Of a stretch of 64,000 bases of DNA, positions 10,543-58,593 are shown piece by piece. The notes beneath the pieces are model-generated. The model worked only from the letters and a program-made list of their open reading frames with translations. It did not search any database and was not told the DNA's origin. Made by a program: the position numbers and the translations under genes. Position 1 is the first letter of the stretch, and each line of letters begins with the position of its first letter. Source of the stretch: Candidatus Nanopelagicales bacterium (GTDB lineage: Bacteria; Actinomycetota; Actinomycetes; S36-B12); assembly GCA_028687755.1 (NCBI GenBank), contig JAQTZL010000003.1, forward strand, positions 61,804 to 125,803, written 5' to 3'.

Positions 10543-11021
10543 AGCCCACCCGTATTCGCCTGCTGCTCATCATTACTGTCATCGGTGCCTTGGTGGGATT
10601 TGTTCTCGCAAGTGTGATGAACGGCCAAGTTGGCCGCGCGGTACCCGTGCCGTTTCTGGCTGCCCTCACCCTCTGGATACTTGCGCTCGCACTCTTCATT
10701 TGGGCCTACTTGGCAAAGCCACGCCTGCAGCGTGCTCCGGGTTCAGTGCCGTTGGCGCCCATCGTGGCGGCCCGCACCGCAGCACTCGCGATGGCTGCAT
10801 CAAGAACTGGTGCTCTTGTTGCCGGTTTCTATATTGGTCTTGGCGTTGGCACGCTGCCCGATCTGGCTACCCCAGCAGGAACGTCAACGGTGTGGTCGGC
10901 GGGGGCAGCGGCGCTTGGAGCAATCGCGCTTGTAGCCGCGGCGCTATGGCTAGAACATCTGTGTCGATTGCCGGCAGAGGGTGACTCGGATGGATCAGGG
11001 CTAGATAAGGTCAGTCCATGA
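10539..11021 (+). CDS. DUF3180-like integral membrane protein
   Basis: Four predicted TM helices. It occupies the slot directly after folK, which a DUF3180 membrane protein also occupies in other actinobacteria. ATGA overlap with folK. Confidence 0.7.
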   Translation: MKPTRIRLLLIITVIGALVGFVLASVMNGQVGRAVPVPFLAALTLWILALALFIWAYLAKPRLQRAPGSVPLAPIVAARTAALAMAASRTGALVAGFYIGLGVGTLPDLATPAGTSTVWSAGAAALGAIALVAAALWLEHLCRLPAEGDSDGSGLDKVSP

Positions 11022-11305
11022 GCACCGAACCAGTCCTTGAAGACCTTCCATTCGAAGAATTGCGCCATCAGGCCTTTCACCTGGCTGAAAAGCATCTTGA
11101 TTTGGGTTTCTTCACTGATGTGTTCAGCCACATGCCCAGCATGAACGCAATCGAGGGCGAAGGCGGAGACTTAGGGGCTGTTGGTGGAACATTCATCGAC
11201 ACAGTTCGTGCCGTTCGTGAGATGTTTGGTGAAACAGAACTCGATGACACCACCGAAAGCTTGCTGCGCGCACGCTTTGCTACCTACATTCGCGAGCGTT
11301 CGTAA
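11018..11305 (+). CDS. Hypothetical acidic 95-aa protein, last gene of the fol-linked coupled chain
   Basis: ATGA-coupled to the preceding gene. No family recognised by eye. No TM segment or signal peptide. Confidence 0.5.
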   Translation: MSTEPVLEDLPFEELRHQAFHLAEKHLDLGFFTDVFSHMPSMNAIEGEGGDLGAVGGTFIDTVRAVREMFGETELDDTTESLLRARFATYIRERS

Positions 11306-12421
11306 TTAGCGGTCGGCGTCGCCGACCATAAACGTGCACGATTGCAACATGGGCACTAACGCATCCATTGGAAGCCCAACAAGAGTGCTCGTCAAGCTCT
11401 GAATTGTTGCGAATGCTGGCGTACGTAATTTCAAACGCCACGGTGTTTTTTCGCCGATACTGTCGAGCAAAATCCCGATAGTTCCAAGTGGACCTTCAAT
11501 CGCGCCATAAATCGTAAGTTCTGGTGCGCGGACCACCTTAGGAAGTTGAACTGAGGTGGGTCCGTCACCTGCTGCAAGAAGCCACTGGATTGCCTCGTCC
11601 ATGATGCTCAAGCTTGCGAGTAAGTGTTCAGCAATCAACGTAAAGCGCGATGGGATATCGCCAGATCCGTGAGCTATCGGAAAACAATGAGGGACGTGTT
11701 CGTAAGCAAGATAGGGAGTTGTGATGCGTAAATCATTCGCAACCCCACTGCTCCAAGCTATCGATCCAGAAAGCCCATATTCGTGTATTTGTTCTGGAGT
11801 GATAACTCCAATGCCTTCCAACTGCGCAAAGCGATCGCCTATTTTCTGAGGTAAATCATGAAGATCCGTCTGAAGTTCCTTGATGACTGGCGAGAGTAAA
11901 TTGAGCCATTCAGGGAAGCAGGGAGTGGCAATGCCACCGATGCGCACAAACATTGGGTGAATGCGTGATCCAGTGAGTTCTTCGAGAAGCGCTAGAAAGG
12001 TTTCCCGGTGTGCCATGAGCTGGGAAAATTTTGGATCAGTCGTGCCAAGCATGATCAAACTCGCAGTTACGCGATTCATTTCGGCGAGTAACATTCGAGA
12101 CCAGGTTGCACGTTCCGGAGTCAGTATTCCCATTGCATCTTCAAGAACAAGTGCGATGGCCAGTTCTGAACTCATGGCGCTGAGCCAGTCATGGCGATTC
12201 GCCAACATCATCAGTTGTCGGTAGTCGCGGGCTTCGAAGAGTTTTTCGGCACTGCGATGAACAAAGCCGATCCGCGGATCTGCTGAAGTGATGATGGATT
12301 CGTTTGTGTGCAAGGCCAATTGCATAGCGCCTTGCCCAGTGGGATGGAGTTCCCCGAGATCAAGATGGAAATCAGCCGGCAGATTTCGCGCCGCACCTAT
12401 TGCAACTAAGACCTCGTTCAC
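11306..12421 (-). CDS. NuoD/NDUFS2 (complex I 49-kDa subunit) paralogue, orphan, outside the nuo operon
   Basis: It aligns without gaps against the NuoD in this window at both ends. Near the N-terminus, LGELHPTGQGAMQL matches [25 protein letters not shown] matches [11 protein letters not shown], and NRHDWLS matches TRMDYLA. At the C-terminus, EGPLGTIG...TPWRLKLRTPAFATIQ...MVGDADR matches EAPRGELG...[16 protein letters not shown]...VMGGVDR. The [NiFe]-hydrogenase CxxC pairs are absent. Confidence 0.8.
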   Translation of the reverse strand: MNEVLVAIGAARNLPADFHLDLGELHPTGQGAMQLALHTNESIITSADPRIGFVHRSAEKLFEARDYRQLMMLANRHDWLSAMSSELAIALVLEDAMGILTPERATWSRMLLAEMNRVTASLIMLGTTDPKFSQLMAHRETFLALLEELTGSRIHPMFVRIGGIATPCFPEWLNLLSPVIKELQTDLHDLPQKIGDRFAQLEGIGVITPEQIHEYGLSGSIAWSSGVANDLRITTPYLAYEHVPHCFPIAHGSGDIPSRFTLIAEHLLASLSIMDEAIQWLLAAGDGPTSVQLPKVVRAPELTIYGAIEGPLGTIGILLDSIGEKTPWRLKLRTPAFATIQSLTSTLVGLPMDALVPMLQSCTFMVGDADR

Positions 12422-13329
12422 GGTGTCATCTTCGCAGGTTGAGGAAATTCAATTGCATACGCAGCAATAAGCCACCAGAAATCAGGAGTAGGGCCGTCTT
12501 GAAGCATGGTGATGTGTGGTGTTCCTGATGAAGCGTCAGCAAGAGCATCGAGAGCAACATGTGCAGTGATGTTCATTTCCCCAGTCGCCTGCGGTGTAAG
12601 TGTTTGCCCAGCGCGGTAACCCGTAAGTGTGCCGCCATCCCACACTCCTCGAATTCGATCGGCCCGCATGTGCGCGTAATCAATGGCTATGGCAAAGCCT
12701 GACGAGACGAGCGCTGTGAGGTCACGCCAACAAGCATCGCGAGTTATTCCAATTTCGCACCGCATGAATGGGCGAGTAGTCGGCCACCACTTCTTTAACC
12801 ATTCATATTCTGGGCTTGTCGTATCTAAGGCCGCGCCAAGTGTGGGTGTGAAATGCGTGTGATCAGCAACCATGATGTGCGCCACTCCATCGCTACCTAC
12901 TTCTGCCATTGCGCAGGGGAGGTCATCGAGGAATTCATGTGCCACCAACACAGTGTGTCCCGCAGGAATCTGGATGATGGTTTCCCTGACATCACCCTCA
13001 ATCCAGTCGATAGCTGCCGAGAGATGTGCCGGTCGCGGTCTGACATCAAGACAGATAAGGGTCGTGCGTTCGCGCTCTGCAGGTGTAAGCAAATCTGAAA
13101 TGTGCTCCGCCAATAATCCGGTTCCAGCGCCAACATCAATGAACCTGAGAGGCCCTTGGAGCAGGGCGGTGCGCACATAGGGCAGCAGGTCGGTAGCCAA
13201 TGTGGATTGTTGAACGCTGGTGGTGAAGTGGTCATAGGGCAGGGAATGGGAGTAGAAGCCACGATCACCGGTCGCGGCCTTTGCCCAGGCCAGATCCCAA
13301 GCGAGATCTTCGGGAATTTTGGCCACCAC
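12418..13329 (-). CDS. MidA/NDUFAF7-family class I SAM-dependent methyltransferase
   Basis: Family-typical blocks appear in order: DHFTTS (DFxTSPE-like), FIDVGAGTGLLAEHI (SAM motif I), LVAHEFLDDLP (ANEFFDALP-like), AIAIDYAH (DYG-like), GTLTGYRAGQ and GEMNITAHVALDAL (DxTAHVDF-like). Its stop overlaps the GTG start of the NuoD paralogue (GTGA). Confidence 0.75.
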   Translation of the reverse strand: MVAKIPEDLAWDLAWAKAATGDRGFYSHSLPYDHFTTSVQQSTLATDLLPYVRTALLQGPLRFIDVGAGTGLLAEHISDLLTPAERERTTLICLDVRPRPAHLSAAIDWIEGDVRETIIQIPAGHTVLVAHEFLDDLPCAMAEVGSDGVAHIMVADHTHFTPTLGAALDTTSPEYEWLKKWWPTTRPFMRCEIGITRDACWRDLTALVSSGFAIAIDYAHMRADRIRGVWDGGTLTGYRAGQTLTPQATGEMNITAHVALDALADASSGTPHITMLQDGPTPDFWWLIAAYAIEFPQPAKMTP

Positions 13330-13365
13330 AGCAACGCACGGTAGCGAGCCTCTACGCTCCTACGT

Positions 13366-14253
13366 GTGATGGCTCCTCCCCGCCTCCGTGTCGGTGTCAT
13401 TGGCACCGGTCGAGCGGGTTCCGTGATTGGCGCGGCCCTGCATCGTGTTGGTCATGAAGTGGTGGCTGTTGCCGCTGTTTCTGAACTCTCACGCCTTCGA
13501 GCTCAAGCGCTTTTGCCGGGTGTCCCTATCGTTGATATTGATCAGGTGGTTGCGGCCTGTGATTTGGTGCTGGTCGCAGTTCCCGACGATGCGCTAGCTG
13601 GGTTACTCGAAGGTCTTGCTGCGAGCCAATCAGTGAAGCCAGGTCAGTTCTGGGTGCACTTGAGTGGTCGTTATGGCACTGACGTGATGGCGCCAGTAGC
13701 TGCGCTTGGGGCCCTGCCGCTAGCTATCCATCCGGTGATGTCTTTTACCGGAACAAGCATGGATCTCCAACGCCTCGAAGAGTGCCCGTTTGGAGTGACG
13801 GCGCCTGATGAATTGCGAAGTGCTGCCGAAGCGCTCGTCATTGAGATCGGCGGCGATCCCATTTGGGTGCCAGAAGAGAAGCGAGTGCTGTATCACGCAG
13901 CTTTGGCGTTCGGCTCCAATTACCTCATCACCCTGGTAGCCCAAAGTGCCGAGTTGTTGTCGCGGGCCGGCATCGAAGAACCGCGTCGTGTTCTTGCTCC
14001 ACTGTTGAGTGCGAGTTTGGATAACGCGTTGCGACTGGGCGACCAAGCATTGACCGGGCCAGTGGCGCGAGGTGACGCGGCGAGCGTCAAGGCACATCTT
14101 GCTGTGCTTACTGAGCAATCCGAGCTCGCAGGTTCAAGTTACCGAGTACTGGCCCGCGTAACTGCAGATCGAGCAGTTGATGCTGGGTTACTGTCTACAG
14201 CGCATGCAGAGGCACTCTTGGGTGTGCTGAGTGAAGAAGGGGAATCGACATGA
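13366..14253 (+). CDS. Rossmann-fold, DUF2520-type putative oxidoreductase (panC-associated)
   Basis: N-terminal GVIGTGRAGS dinucleotide-binding motif and C-terminal ...LTGPVARGD... block. ATGA-coupled to panC, the usual actinobacterial position for this family. Confidence 0.7.
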   Translation: MMAPPRLRVGVIGTGRAGSVIGAALHRVGHEVVAVAAVSELSRLRAQALLPGVPIVDIDQVVAACDLVLVAVPDDALAGLLEGLAASQSVKPGQFWVHLSGRYGTDVMAPVAALGALPLAIHPVMSFTGTSMDLQRLEECPFGVTAPDELRSAAEALVIEIGGDPIWVPEEKRVLYHAALAFGSNYLITLVAQSAELLSRAGIEEPRRVLAPLLSASLDNALRLGDQALTGPVARGDAASVKAHLAVLTEQSELAGSSYRVLARVTADRAVDAGLLSTAHAEALLGVLSEEGEST

Positions 14254-56528: not shown

Positions 56529-57235
56529 GTGACACTCCTGTAGTGCCAGTCGTTCCCGCTGGTGTGAGTCAGTTTGAAGTCTTCCATGTGCGCGAAGGCG
56601 CTTTCGGTGCATCAGGTTCCGGCGACACTAGCGGTTTTGGTGGACTCGTTGAACTCATGCACATGCCAGAAGCATCAGTTCGCCCGTTCGGTGGATGGTT
56701 TGATGAAGTTGCAGATGAACTCGAGCTCTCGTTGAAAGCTCGCAACATCAGTGCGGCAGATGCAATTGAAAAAGTTGTGATTTCCTTCAACGAAATCACC
56801 TTCTTCATTCGCCGCGCGCAACTTGTCACAGTGCTCTCAACCCTGCGTGATGAGCCAGGCCTGCGCTTCGAATTTTCAACAGGCGTCAGCGGCGTTCATT
56901 ACCCAGGCGACACTGGCCGCGAATTGCATGCGGTTTACCACCTAATGTCGATCACCCACAACCGCCGCGTCCGGGTTGAAGTGGTGACTCCTGATTCAGA
57001 TCGCCACATTCCTTCCTCAGTCAGCGTGTACCCAACCAATGACTGGCATGAGCGCGAAACCTTTGACTTCTTTGGCATCATCTTTGATGGCCATCCAGCA
57101 TTGACGCGCATTGAAATGCCAGATGATTGGCCAGGTCACCCACAGCGTAAGGACTACCCATTGGGTGGCATTCCAGTTGAATACAAGGGCGCAACTATTC
57201 CGCCACCAGATCAGCGGAGGTCGTACAACTCATGA
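56525..57235 (+). CDS. nuoC: NADH-quinone oxidoreductase subunit C
   Basis: The 30-kDa subunit block [27 protein letters not shown] overlap. Confidence 0.95.
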
Positions 57236-58593
57236 CCACAGATAACGTCACCTACACCAGTGCACCAGCGCAGGCCAACGATCCATATGCCAACCTCGGT
57301 GATTCCGAAGAGGGACGCATCTTCAACGTTGGCGGCGGCGACTGGGATTCAATCACTGTTGACCCCGATAGCGATTCAGAGCGCATCGTCATCAACATGG
57401 GTCCGCAGCACCCGTCAACTCACGGTGTGCTCCGTTTGATTCTTGAAATTGAAGGCGAGTACGTCACTGAAGCCCGCTGCGGCATTGGTTACCTACACAC
57501 CGGTATTGAAAAGAACATGGAGTTCCGTTCATTTACCCAAGGTGTTACGTACGCAACACGTATGGACTACCTAGCACCGTTCTTTAACGAAGCGGTGTAC
57601 TGCCTAGCAATTGAAAAGCTTCTTGGCATTACCGATCAAATTCCAGAACGTGCCAACGTCATTCGCGTGATGATGATGGAACTCAACCGAATTTCATCTC
57701 ACCTCGTGGCGCTTGCAACTGGTGGCATGGAGCTAGGTGCGCTCACCGCGATGGAATTTGGTTTCCGCGAACGCGAACTCATTCTCGACATTTTCGAAAT
57801 GATCACCGGCCTTCGCATGAACAATGCGTACATCCGTCCGGGCGGCGTTGCTCAGGATCTTCCTGCTGGCGCAGAAGAAAAGATTCGCGAAACTATTCCG
57901 CTACTTCGCAAGCGCTTGAAAGACACTGCTGATCTCTTAGTTGATAACAACATCTGGATGGGTCGCACCGTCGGCATCGGGTTCCTTGATCTCACCGGTT
58001 GTATGGCTCTTGGTGTTACTGGTCCAGTGCTTCGCGCGACTGGTTTCCCTCAAGACCTTCGTAAGTCTCAGCCTTACTGTGGCTATGAAAACTACGAGTT
58101 CGAAATCGTTACTGAAACCACTAACGATGCATACGGCCGCTTCCTCATTCGCATTCGCGAAATGGAGCAATCAATTCGCATCGTTGAGCAGGCACTTGAT
58201 CGCTTGCAGCCAGGTCCAGTGATGGTTGAAGACAAGAAGATTGCATGGCCAGCTCAGTTGTCTGTTGGCAGCGATGGCCAGGGCAACTCCCTTGAACACA
58301 TCCGCGAAATCATGTCGGAGTCAATGGAAGCGTTGATCCACCACTTCAAGTTGGTTACTGAAGGTTTCCGTGTTCCTGTTGGTCAGGTCTACACGGCGAT
58401 TGAAGCACCACGTGGAGAACTTGGATGTCACTTGGTGAGTGCTGGTGGCACTCGTCCATTCCGTGTGCACTTCCGCGATCCGTCATTCACGAATCTTCAG
58501 TCAGTTGCGGCTATGTGCGAAGGCGGTCAGATTGCTGACGTCATCGCAGCTGTTGCAAGCATCGATCCAGTTATGGGCGGAGTCGATCGCTAA
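57232..58593 (+). CDS. nuoD: NADH-quinone oxidoreductase subunit D (canonical)
   Basis: [32 protein letters not shown] and the C-terminal [11 protein letters not shown]. It sits in operon position between nuoC and nuoE. Confidence 0.97.

Follow-up and report, generated by a model that had tools for sequence, protein, structure and literature searches.

A conserved operon of a compact MidA/NDUFAF7-family methyltransferase and an orphan NuoD paralogue in Actinomycetota suggests a bacterial version of the NDUFAF7-NDUFS2 pair

We describe a two-gene operon on the minus strand of a 64,000-nucleotide stretch of DNA from a Candidatus Nanopelagicales bacterium (GCA_028687755.1, contig JAQTZL010000003.1, positions 61,804 to 125,803; the whole stretch is called the window here), in which a compact methyltransferase of the MidA/NDUFAF7 family is followed by a short paralogue of the complex I subunit NuoD/NDUFS2, called NuoD2, that lies ~44 kb away from the nuo operon within the window. 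The two proteins belong to these families by sequence and by predicted fold, and their genes are linked reciprocally in other actinomycete genomes, are translationally coupled and are under purifying selection. Moreover, NuoD2 invariably carries the arginine that corresponds to the residue modified by NDUFAF7 in mitochondrial NDUFS2, a residue replaced in the housekeeping NuoD of the window. By analogy with mitochondria, the pair suggests a bacterial version of the NDUFAF7-NDUFS2 enzyme-substrate system, and we infer an enzyme-substrate relation between the methyltransferase and NuoD2. The genes in question are as follows:

12418-13329, minus strand: upstream gene, a compact MidA/NDUFAF7-family (PF02636, COG1565) S-adenosylmethionine (SAM)-dependent methyltransferase of 303 aa with a GTG start (open reading frame, ORF)
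11306-12421, minus strand: downstream gene, the short-form NuoD/NDUFS2 paralogue NuoD2, 371 aa, with a GTG start (ORF)
12418-12421, minus strand: GTGA, in which the TGA stop of the methyltransferase overlaps the GTG start of NuoD2 (…ccGTGAacg…; sequence)
57232-58593, plus strand: the housekeeping NuoD in the nuo operon, the comparison partner outside the two-gene unit (NCBIfam match)

Both ORFs, with their coordinates and lengths, and the GTGA overlap are exactly as given in the first-pass annotation of this DNA.

The 303-aa protein belongs to the MidA/NDUFAF7 family, both by Pfam and by fold. It matched PF02636 (Methyltransf_28) with 62.9 bits (E 4e-17; cutoff 23.3), and its Planotetraspora orthologue matched the same model with 65.8 bits. 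The SAM-binding motif I (D65-V-G-A-G-T-G71; codons at 13117-13137, minus strand, read from the sequence) aligns with 'EFGAGTG' of the structure 4f3n, and in an alignment of 24 family members D65, G67 and G71 are invariant and G69 nearly so; the HF.TS, AHEFLDD.P, DYAH, GTL.GY and NITAHV blocks likewise match the corresponding blocks of 4f3n. Six blocks had been named at first pass (DHFTTS, VGAGTG, AHEFLDDLP, DYAH, TLTGYR and NITAHV), and we found all of them in the translation, on invariant columns of the family. A PDB search with the single sequence found nothing and a family profile was needed; the 24-member profile retrieved two bacterial COG1565/DUF185 structures, 4f3n (1.6e-13) and 1zkd (5e-11), as well as Dictyostelium MidA (5ztz; 0.0056). 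With an AlphaFold2 model of the methyltransferase (pLDDT 93.4), the six best PDB fold matches were 4g67, 5zu0, 5ztz, 4f3n and chains A and B of 1zkd; these MidA/COG1565 matches had TMq values of 0.65-0.74 and E values of 6e-14 to 9e-13, while the next-best methyltransferases had E values of at least 9e-8, a gap of about six orders of magnitude. The model is predicted to comprise the 7-beta-strand methyltransferase core together with the additions specific to MidA. The full-length MidA architecture (~390-430 aa) is not reached, as the protein is ~90-130 residues shorter; the profile covers only residues 97-352 of the 432-aa 4f3n, and thus the N- and C-terminal parts are absent. The protein is 12-22% identical to solved family members. 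Since MidA/COG1565 structures top the fold list by such a wide gap in E value, we conclude that the methyltransferase is a genuine, compact and very divergent member of the MidA/NDUFAF7 family.

NuoD2 matched PF00346 (Complex1_49kDa) with 126.9 bits (E 1e-36; cutoff 24), so that the Pfam families expected at first pass for 11306-12421 (PF00346) and 12418-13329 (PF02636) were both found above cutoff. It scores below every curated NCBIfam equivalog cutoff for NuoD (219.9 vs 522 bits for PRK12322, 218.5 vs 360 for PRK06075 and 200.9 vs 459 for TIGR01962); the housekeeping NuoD scores 570 bits on PRK06075 (cutoff 360), and the Planotetraspora NuoD2 orthologue passes the same model (388 vs 360). 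Residues 20-371 of NuoD2 are collinear with residues 54-453 of the housekeeping NuoD (25% identity, E 1e-38), in agreement with the first-pass description of a protein collinear with canonical NuoD that lacks the latter's 34 N-terminal residues. Internally, the two proteins differ mainly by one gap of ~41 residues after NuoD2 residue 297, opposite the housekeeping NuoD segment holding '[11 protein letters not shown]'. This apparent deletion is common to short-form NuoD relatives: NuoD2 spans the 366-aa short-form NuoD model PRK12322 end to end (17-370 vs 6-365) and aligns along its whole length with the 372-aa FpoD model. Compared to the short-form NuoD and FpoD of complex-I-like enzymes that lack NuoEFG (PRK12322, NF040602), NuoD2 therefore has the full-length alignment and the missing ~41-residue segment in common, but differs in scoring under the curated cutoffs (220 vs 522 bits), in its location outside a nuo operon and in a Trp in place of the quinone-binding Tyr (see below). 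We take PRK12322 to cover Bacillus-type organisms.

The AlphaFold2 model of NuoD2 (pLDDT 85, pTM 0.88) matched the NDUFS2/NuoD chains of solved complex I structures with TM scores of 0.78-0.87 (E ~1e-19; Foldseek), and on this model the 371-aa protein is predicted to have the NuoD/NDUFS2 fold. The only segments with pLDDT below 50 are the HRSAEK loop (56-62) and residues 159-161, which fits loops that would be accessible first and ordered only on a partner. By comparison, the best PDB match of the housekeeping NuoD is M. smegmatis NuoD (8e9g; E 1e-215). We rejected the large subunit of a group 4 [NiFe] hydrogenase (HycE, EchE, MbhL) as an identity for NuoD2, since both Cys-ligand pairs (RxCGxCxxxH near the N-terminus and DPCxxCxxH/R near the C-terminus) are missing: none of the columns that are invariant or nearly so holds a Cys, and the two motifs are LHPTGQGAM at the N-terminal site and FMVGDADR at the C-terminus. 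Profile matches of NuoD2 in the PDB to membrane-bound hydrogenase (MBH) and formate hydrogenlyase (FHL) were far weaker than those to NuoD. We also noted that the NuoD2 lineage of the window evolves much faster than soil lineages, as it scores 220 bits on the NuoD model on which the Planotetraspora orthologue (L030, 5926-7161) scores 416, and reads GELHPTGQG and HRSAEK where soil-lineage NuoD2 reads GPQHPSTHG and HRGAEK. This fast drift may reflect relaxed or shifted constraint at the former quinone site in streamlined freshwater genomes.

The two genes are linked far beyond the window. We scanned one genome per species for NuoD2, which yielded at least 600 matches, and kept 80 loci for analysis of gene neighborhoods; NuoD2 relatives of 360-410 aa number in the thousands. 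Actinomycetota account for 78 of the 80 loci, and the other two are metagenome-assembled genomes (MAGs) labelled 'uncultured bacterium' and 'Bifidobacterium breve', the latter probably mis-binned. The loci come from Nanopelagicales-type freshwater MAGs, Streptomyces, Kitasatospora, Actinoplanes, Nonomuraea and Streptosporangium, as well as Nocardioidaceae, Flexivirga, Geodermatophilaceae and Acidothermaceae; Streptomyces NuoD2 is 40-41% identical to that of the window and is likewise flanked by the methyltransferase. Starting from NuoD2, 75 species-representative loci were informative, and 69 of them have the methyltransferase within 6 kb (~39 adjacent on the same strand, 27 separated by 1.6-4.7 kb and 3 otherwise arranged). 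Starting from the methyltransferase in 80 metagenome loci, we found NuoD2 in 45 and no NuoD2 in range in 3, the remainder being too short. The adjacency, which the first-pass annotation had proposed to count around PF02636 genes, is thus not confined to the window genome. The two genes form one translationally coupled operon: the 4-nt ATGA or GTGA overlap recurs in 23 adjacent pairs of other genomes, including Kitasatospora, Streptacidiphilus, Actinoplanes and Streptomyces, and most of the remaining adjacent pairs have a spacer of less than 40 nt. Both genes are also under purifying selection in the window's own lineage, with ratios of nonsynonymous to synonymous substitution (dN/dS) relative to the closest relative of 0.11 for NuoD2 and 0.18 for the methyltransferase, compared to 0.12 for folK.

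In most loci the pair sits between folK/DUF3180 and DUF2520/panC, as it does in the window, and this placement extends from Nanopelagicales-type MAGs through Actinoplanes, Nonomuraea and Kitasatospora. Since the placement is conserved across the class, we consider it the ancestral arrangement, with the mycobacterial order reflecting loss; the first-pass view that the pair is an insertion relative to the mycobacterial order does not stand. We likewise rejected a recent horizontal insertion of the pair, against which speak the class-wide synteny and the lack of a strong compositional break, with a GC content of 0.50-0.55 across the pair, 0.51-0.61 in the flanks and no sharp island. Streptomyces loci keep the pair together even where no fol or pan genes are left within 6 kb.

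Several lineages show other arrangements of the pair. An opposite-strand cytochrome P450 gene lies between the methyltransferase and NuoD2 in 22 of 80 loci, in Streptosporangiales and some other soil lineages (for example L030, 3128-5901; also L020, L022, L034, L062 and L070). A gene for a SufS-family cysteine desulfurase-like protein, a pyridoxal phosphate (PLP) enzyme, lies directly upstream of NuoD2 on the same strand in 12 Streptosporangiales-type loci; that of L030 stops 24 nt before NuoD2, reaches 262 bits where the cutoff is 475, and is similar to encapsulin cargo desulfurases too. In five loci from marine and other metagenomes (L113, L114, L117, L136 and L146), the methyltransferase is inverted relative to NuoD2 and co-directional with DUF2520, and ~2 kb with two genes for bPH_2-type (YdbS/YdbT-like) membrane proteins separates the pair; in L060 a bPH_2 gene is directly upstream of NuoD2. 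We ruled out a third conserved partner, as the genes between the pair members are lineage-restricted. We also rejected two apparent NuoD2 fusions (P0102, 574 aa, and a 729-aa ORF in L009) as evidence of interaction, since the extra parts are read-through on the strand antisense to DUF2520, with no methyltransferase in them. One locus, L012 (CAVZPI010000033.1), is a near-perfect mirror, in which ftsH-fol-orf95-NuoD2-methyltransferase fragments are followed by NuoD2-orf95-fol-ftsH in reverse; it looks like an assembly artefact by inverted duplication rather than biology.

We then compared NuoD2 with the housekeeping NuoD at the positions known to matter in complex I, in an alignment of 118 full-length NuoD2 proteins and the housekeeping NuoD of the window. 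The codons of interest, all on the minus strand, are:

12242-12259: the HRGxE motif, H55-R56-S-A-E-K60, with R56, the proposed methyl acceptor, at 12254-12256 (sequence)
11957-11959: H155, at the position of the NuoD His proximal to cluster N2 (alignment)
12185-12187: W79, at the position of the quinone-binding Tyr of NuoD (Thermus Y87; alignment)
12332-12334: Q30, at the position of the His in the beta1-beta2 loop (Thermus H38, which binds the quinone head group; alignment)

H55, R56 and E59 are each present in 118 of the 118 NuoD2 proteins. In contrast, the housekeeping NuoD of the window has T90 (57499-57501) at the Arg position; it carries 'LHTGIEK', 'RMDY' and 'RMNNAY'. M. smegmatis NuoD (8e9g) and Thermus Nqo4 similarly read LHTGxEK, with Thr replacing Arg. 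The Arg of HRGxE corresponds to R85/R121 of bovine/Yarrowia NDUFS2, at a distance of 3.7 A from cluster N2, and complex I of mammals, yeasts and Paracoccus carries it in symmetrically dimethylated form, while Thermus has Thr (PMC8042128); the enzyme that dimethylates this Arg in NDUFS2 is NDUFAF7 (PMC3829151). Thus, in these bacteria the only NuoD-type protein with the known target of NDUFAF7 shares an operon with a relative of NDUFAF7. The second residue near N2, H155, is also His in 118 of 118 NuoD2 proteins and aligns with the His of Paracoccus 'GARLHAAY' and Thermus 'GQRFHHNY', whereas the housekeeping NuoD of the window has N197; the site reads N-H in M. smegmatis NuoD and H-H in Thermus. 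Paracoccus NuoD has R, H and Y at the HRGxE Arg, the N2-proximal His and the quinone Tyr sites, respectively. Judged by these aligned residues, NuoD2 looks more 'mitochondrial' around N2 than the respiratory NuoD does, as it keeps both the Arg and the His.

The quinone site shows a different pattern. The position of W79 is Trp in all 118 NuoD2 proteins, aligned with the Y of Paracoccus 'RLDY', compared to Y113 in the housekeeping NuoD, and at the position of Q30, 108 proteins have His, 9 (those of the window and its closest relatives) have Gln and one has Asn, compared to H64 in the housekeeping NuoD. The window's NuoD2 therefore has the HRGxE motif and the N2-proximal His of a NuoD, but neither of the quinone head-group ligands, the Tyr (Y87) and the loop His (H38). 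The best conserved parts of NuoD2 are the N2-facing R56 and H155 and the C-terminal G-D-x-D-R/K end. Taken together with the reciprocal linkage and the recurring 4-nt overlap, the Arg that is invariant in NuoD2 but lost from the housekeeping NuoD lends good support to the first-pass view of a genetically hard-wired pair of an NDUFAF7-like and a NuoD-like protein.

The invariant Trp also bears on an earlier proposal. Site-directed Y87-to-W mutants have severely reduced quinone reductase activity and strong resistance to inhibitors of the quinone (Q) site, and a rare Y87-to-W substitution in the 'NuoD' of piericidin-producing Streptomyces has been claimed to give inhibitor resistance (PMC4758237). 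Because Trp is universal in NuoD2 (118 of 118), freshwater plankton included, this claim possibly rests on NuoD2; the producers' 'NuoD' sequences with Y87-to-W may in fact be NuoD2 sequences.

Comparison with known systems places the pair closest to NDUFAF7/NDUFS2 of mitochondria and Paracoccus denitrificans. The two protein families are the same by Pfam and by fold, the methyl-acceptor Arg of HRGxE is invariant in NuoD2 and the N2-proximal His is retained too. The differences are that the presumed substrate is an orphan paralogue, with the respiratory NuoD having Thr at the acceptor site, that both genes are in one translationally coupled operon, that the methyltransferase is trimmed by ~90-130 residues, that NuoD2 has Trp for the quinone Tyr and that the host belongs to Actinomycetota, outside the presumed alpha-proteobacterial origin of the NDUFAF7 system (PMC9006661). 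A second comparison is with Ca. Actinomarinales, in which an 11-subunit nuoABCDHIJKLMN operon is followed by an NDUFAF7/PF02636 gene (bioRxiv 10.1101/2021.02.01.429150). Both cases are in the same phylum and link a PF02636 gene genetically to a nuoD, and the Actinomarinales enzyme lacks the NADH-oxidising module; however, there the methyltransferase follows a complete operon, whereas here it comes first and the nuoD stands alone, far from other nuo genes. Third, the window protein is of the same family as Streptomyces nuoD2, which is located apart from a partial nuo2 operon (nuoA2, B2, H2-N2) that lacks C, D, E, F and G (PMC8388888, PMC3765725).

The first-pass annotation knew of no functional description of such a pair. 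This holds only in part: the paralogue already bears the name nuoD2 in the Streptomyces papers, but these mention it in passing and are silent on the methyltransferase, the invariant Arg/His/Trp pattern and the phylogenetic spread, so that nuoD2 was previously known by name only. In the literature searched, we found no papers on SCO3392 (by annotation the nuoD2 of S. coelicolor) and no functional work on nuo2. A tie between NDUFAF7 and NuoD in bacteria was not found beyond the works cited here, in a search that left much subscription literature outside, and within the same coverage NDUFAF7 appears in an actinobacterial gene context in one preprint only, on the complete 11-subunit operon. A phylogenomic survey of bacterial complex I resolved multiple subunit copies by chromosomal placement, so stray NuoD copies were not analyzed as parts of complex I (PMC4453560).

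These observations lead us to a proposal to which we give an even chance: Arg56 of NuoD2 would first be modified by the methyltransferase, and NuoD2 would then join a NuoB-type Fe-S partner as part of an alternative enzyme that resembles complex I but has no NADH-oxidising module. In this proposal, the methyltransferase would methylate the guanidino group of Arg56, in the HRSAEK loop, of newly made and unassembled NuoD2. The modified NuoD2 would then dock on a NuoB-type [4Fe-4S] subunit, with Arg56 and His155 flanking an N2-like cluster, as modelled on Paracoccus and mitochondrial complex I. Finally, NuoD2 would serve as the Q-module of an alternative complex-I-like enzyme without the NADH-oxidising module, that is, of the Streptomyces nuo2 set (A2, B2, H2-N2), or else as a variant Q-module on the housekeeping membrane arm. 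We infer the methylation itself, Arg56 as its target, the NuoB-type partner and the membrane complex from the linkage and the residue pattern. The docking step draws support from the conservation of the N2-facing residues, which are the most conserved, from the short form of NuoD2 and from the Streptomyces nuo2 operon without a nuoD of its own, and further from the Actinomarinales operon and from the co-oriented cysteine desulfurase-like gene in some lineages, a hint of Fe-S chemistry. With Trp in place of the quinone Tyr throughout the family, and Gln in place of the loop His in the window genome, any chemistry at the acceptor site must differ from that of the housekeeping enzyme.

Several points weigh against this proposal. 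The methyltransferase is distant from NDUFAF7 (profile E 0.0056 to 5ztz, 12-13% identity) and ~90-130 residues shorter. The function of prokaryotic MidA has been inferred in silico only, and a Wolbachia MidA produced in E. coli acted on DNA as a methyltransferase (PMC12455994). The Streptomyces nuo2 operon lacks nuoC as well (PMC8388888, PMC3765725), and Trp at the quinone Tyr site is the substitution of mutants with severely reduced activity (PMC4758237), which calls a normal catalytic role into question. In 6 of the 75 NuoD2 loci no methyltransferase is in range and R56 is nonetheless retained; the neighbors there are unrelated (for example ABC and MFS transporters, a histidine kinase, a type III polyketide synthase and a GNAT protein). 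NuoD2 is not encoded in a nuo operon beside nuoB and nuoC, and no NuoB, C, E, F or G homologue occurs within 5-6 kb of it in any of 160 loci. Judged from sequence, methylation and partner binding are plausible but unproven.

The absence of nuo genes from these 160 neighborhoods would fit a soluble two-protein unit of NuoD2 and the methyltransferase outside any membrane complex. Such a unit could help to assemble the housekeeping NuoB/N2 cluster or act as its chaperone, or could be a sensor of redox state or of a ligand whose former quinone/NiFe cavity (invariant W79, R76, D78 and H155) binds something else, with a regulatory methylation of R56 or another site. We consider this unlikely, though it would also account for the catalytic Tyr being replaced in all members and the loop His in the window lineage, for the drift of the window protein far from NuoD (220 bits vs 416 for the Planotetraspora orthologue) and for its retention under purifying selection in very compact freshwater genomes (spacers of 0-36 bp). 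Against it, the best conserved parts are N2-facing R56/H155 and the G-D-x-D-R/K C-terminus, as expected if a NuoB-type partner is still bound, the Streptomyces nuo2 operon has no nuoD of its own and the Actinomarinales precedent links PF02636 to a complete 11-subunit operon. If the window genome has no nuo2 genes, the idea of a soluble unit gains weight. For streamlined freshwater Actinomycetota with only the single 14-subunit nuo operon, we consider it rather improbable that the pair works independently of any second membrane complex, as a soluble module derived from a complex I subunit and controlled by arginine methylation; such a module would, for instance, help NuoB to mature its N2 cluster or sense redox state or a quinone analogue.

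It is somewhat less likely again that the methyltransferase acts on something other than Arg56 of NuoD2, be it a small molecule, a nucleic acid, another protein or another residue of NuoD2, with NuoD2 a partner or merely co-expressed. Within the MidA family, eukaryotic NDUFAF7/MidA is the only case for which Arg methylation has been demonstrated, a bacterial MidA acted on DNA in a heterologous host, and the enzyme here is a trimmed and very divergent member; moreover, the P450 and PLP-enzyme genes inserted between the pair in many soil lineages could hint at small-molecule chemistry. However, the P450 gene is on the opposite strand and restricted to some lineages (22 of 80 loci), the coupling to NuoD2 is conserved, and the one known substrate of the family is the very protein family encoded next door, in which the target residue is invariant while it is lost from the housekeeping paralogue.

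An adjacency simply inherited within a conserved housekeeping block without functional connection is very unlikely: the entire ftsH-fol ... pan-nad-coaX block is syntenic across the class and the pair members can be 1.6-4.7 kb apart, with unrelated genes in between, in many soil lineages, but the pair remains together where the flanks have dispersed (Streptomyces), keeps the same strand and very frequently the 4-nt overlap, and reproduces a known enzyme-substrate pairing of families, which would be a remarkable coincidence. We give the least credence to NuoD2 replacing the housekeeping NuoD in the 14-subunit complex to make an inhibitor-insensitive Q-site, with the methyltransferase as assembly factor, since, although Y87-to-W matches mutants strongly resistant to Q-site inhibitors and was reported in the 'NuoD' (perhaps NuoD2) of piericidin-producing Streptomyces (PMC4758237), the Trp occurs without exception, also in lineages of freshwater and marine plankton that are not known to produce inhibitors, the mutants are severely impaired with long-chain quinone analogues (PMC4758237), and NuoD2 lacks the 34-residue N-terminal extension and the 41-residue segment of the housekeeping protein, so that a simple swap is doubtful.

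The surroundings of the pair in the window match the first-pass description of a minus-strand unit within ftsH-to-coaX-type housekeeping genes, with folE-folP-folB-folK-DUF3180-orf95 on one side and DUF2520-panC-nadB-nadC-coaX on the other. One further feature borders the methyltransferase:

13330-13365, no strand: divergent intergenic spacer of 36 bp between the start of the methyltransferase and the start of DUF2520 (ORF coordinates)

Any promoter of the pair must lie in this spacer or within the DUF2520 gene; sigma-70-like sites gave zero matches in 10800-13700, terminator-like sites around the pair occurred at chance level only, and no Rfam family matched there. On the other side, the stop codons of orf95 (plus strand) and NuoD2 (minus strand) abut without a spacer (11303-11308). 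This 95-aa ORF (11018-11305, plus strand) had been counted at first pass with the inserted unit, a grouping that we do not retain: it is on the strand opposite to the NuoD2 pair, its ATG overlaps the DUF3180 stop (ATGA at 11018-11021) and it travels with the fol genes, and it is therefore a member of the fol operon outside the NuoD2 unit. It is a real and extremely constrained gene (dN/dS 0.012 relative to the closest relative), 72-98% identical among freshwater and marine relatives whose NuoD2 is just 40-50% identical; it has 285 homologues of 93-97 aa, labelled 'hypothetical' by every source, and no match in Pfam or NCBIfam.

The pair is well supported as an observation, and the proposed mechanism, plausible but unproven, is directly testable in Streptomyces. 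Assembly of human complex I requires dimethylation of the NDUFS2 Arg by NDUFAF7, the mechanistic role of which is unresolved; mutation of the Arg destroys cluster N2, so the effects of charge and of methylation have been inseparable so far (PMC8042128). With a MidA-like enzyme and a NuoD paralogue that looks dispensable in one operon, the role of the methyl-Arg could be studied in a clean system by both genetics and biochemistry, and the pair occurs not only in Streptomyces, which is tractable, but in hundreds of other actinomycetes as well. NuoD2 may be confused with NuoD in automatic annotation and in at least one comparative study. If the freshwater pair were a soluble module of this kind, it would mark the first case in bacteria of a switch by protein arginine methylation whose substrate is defined and co-encoded. 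Finally, both the Arg and the His next to it are lost from the housekeeping NuoD of actinobacteria but kept in NuoD2, and the origin of the NDUFAF7-type system may be not purely alpha-proteobacterial.

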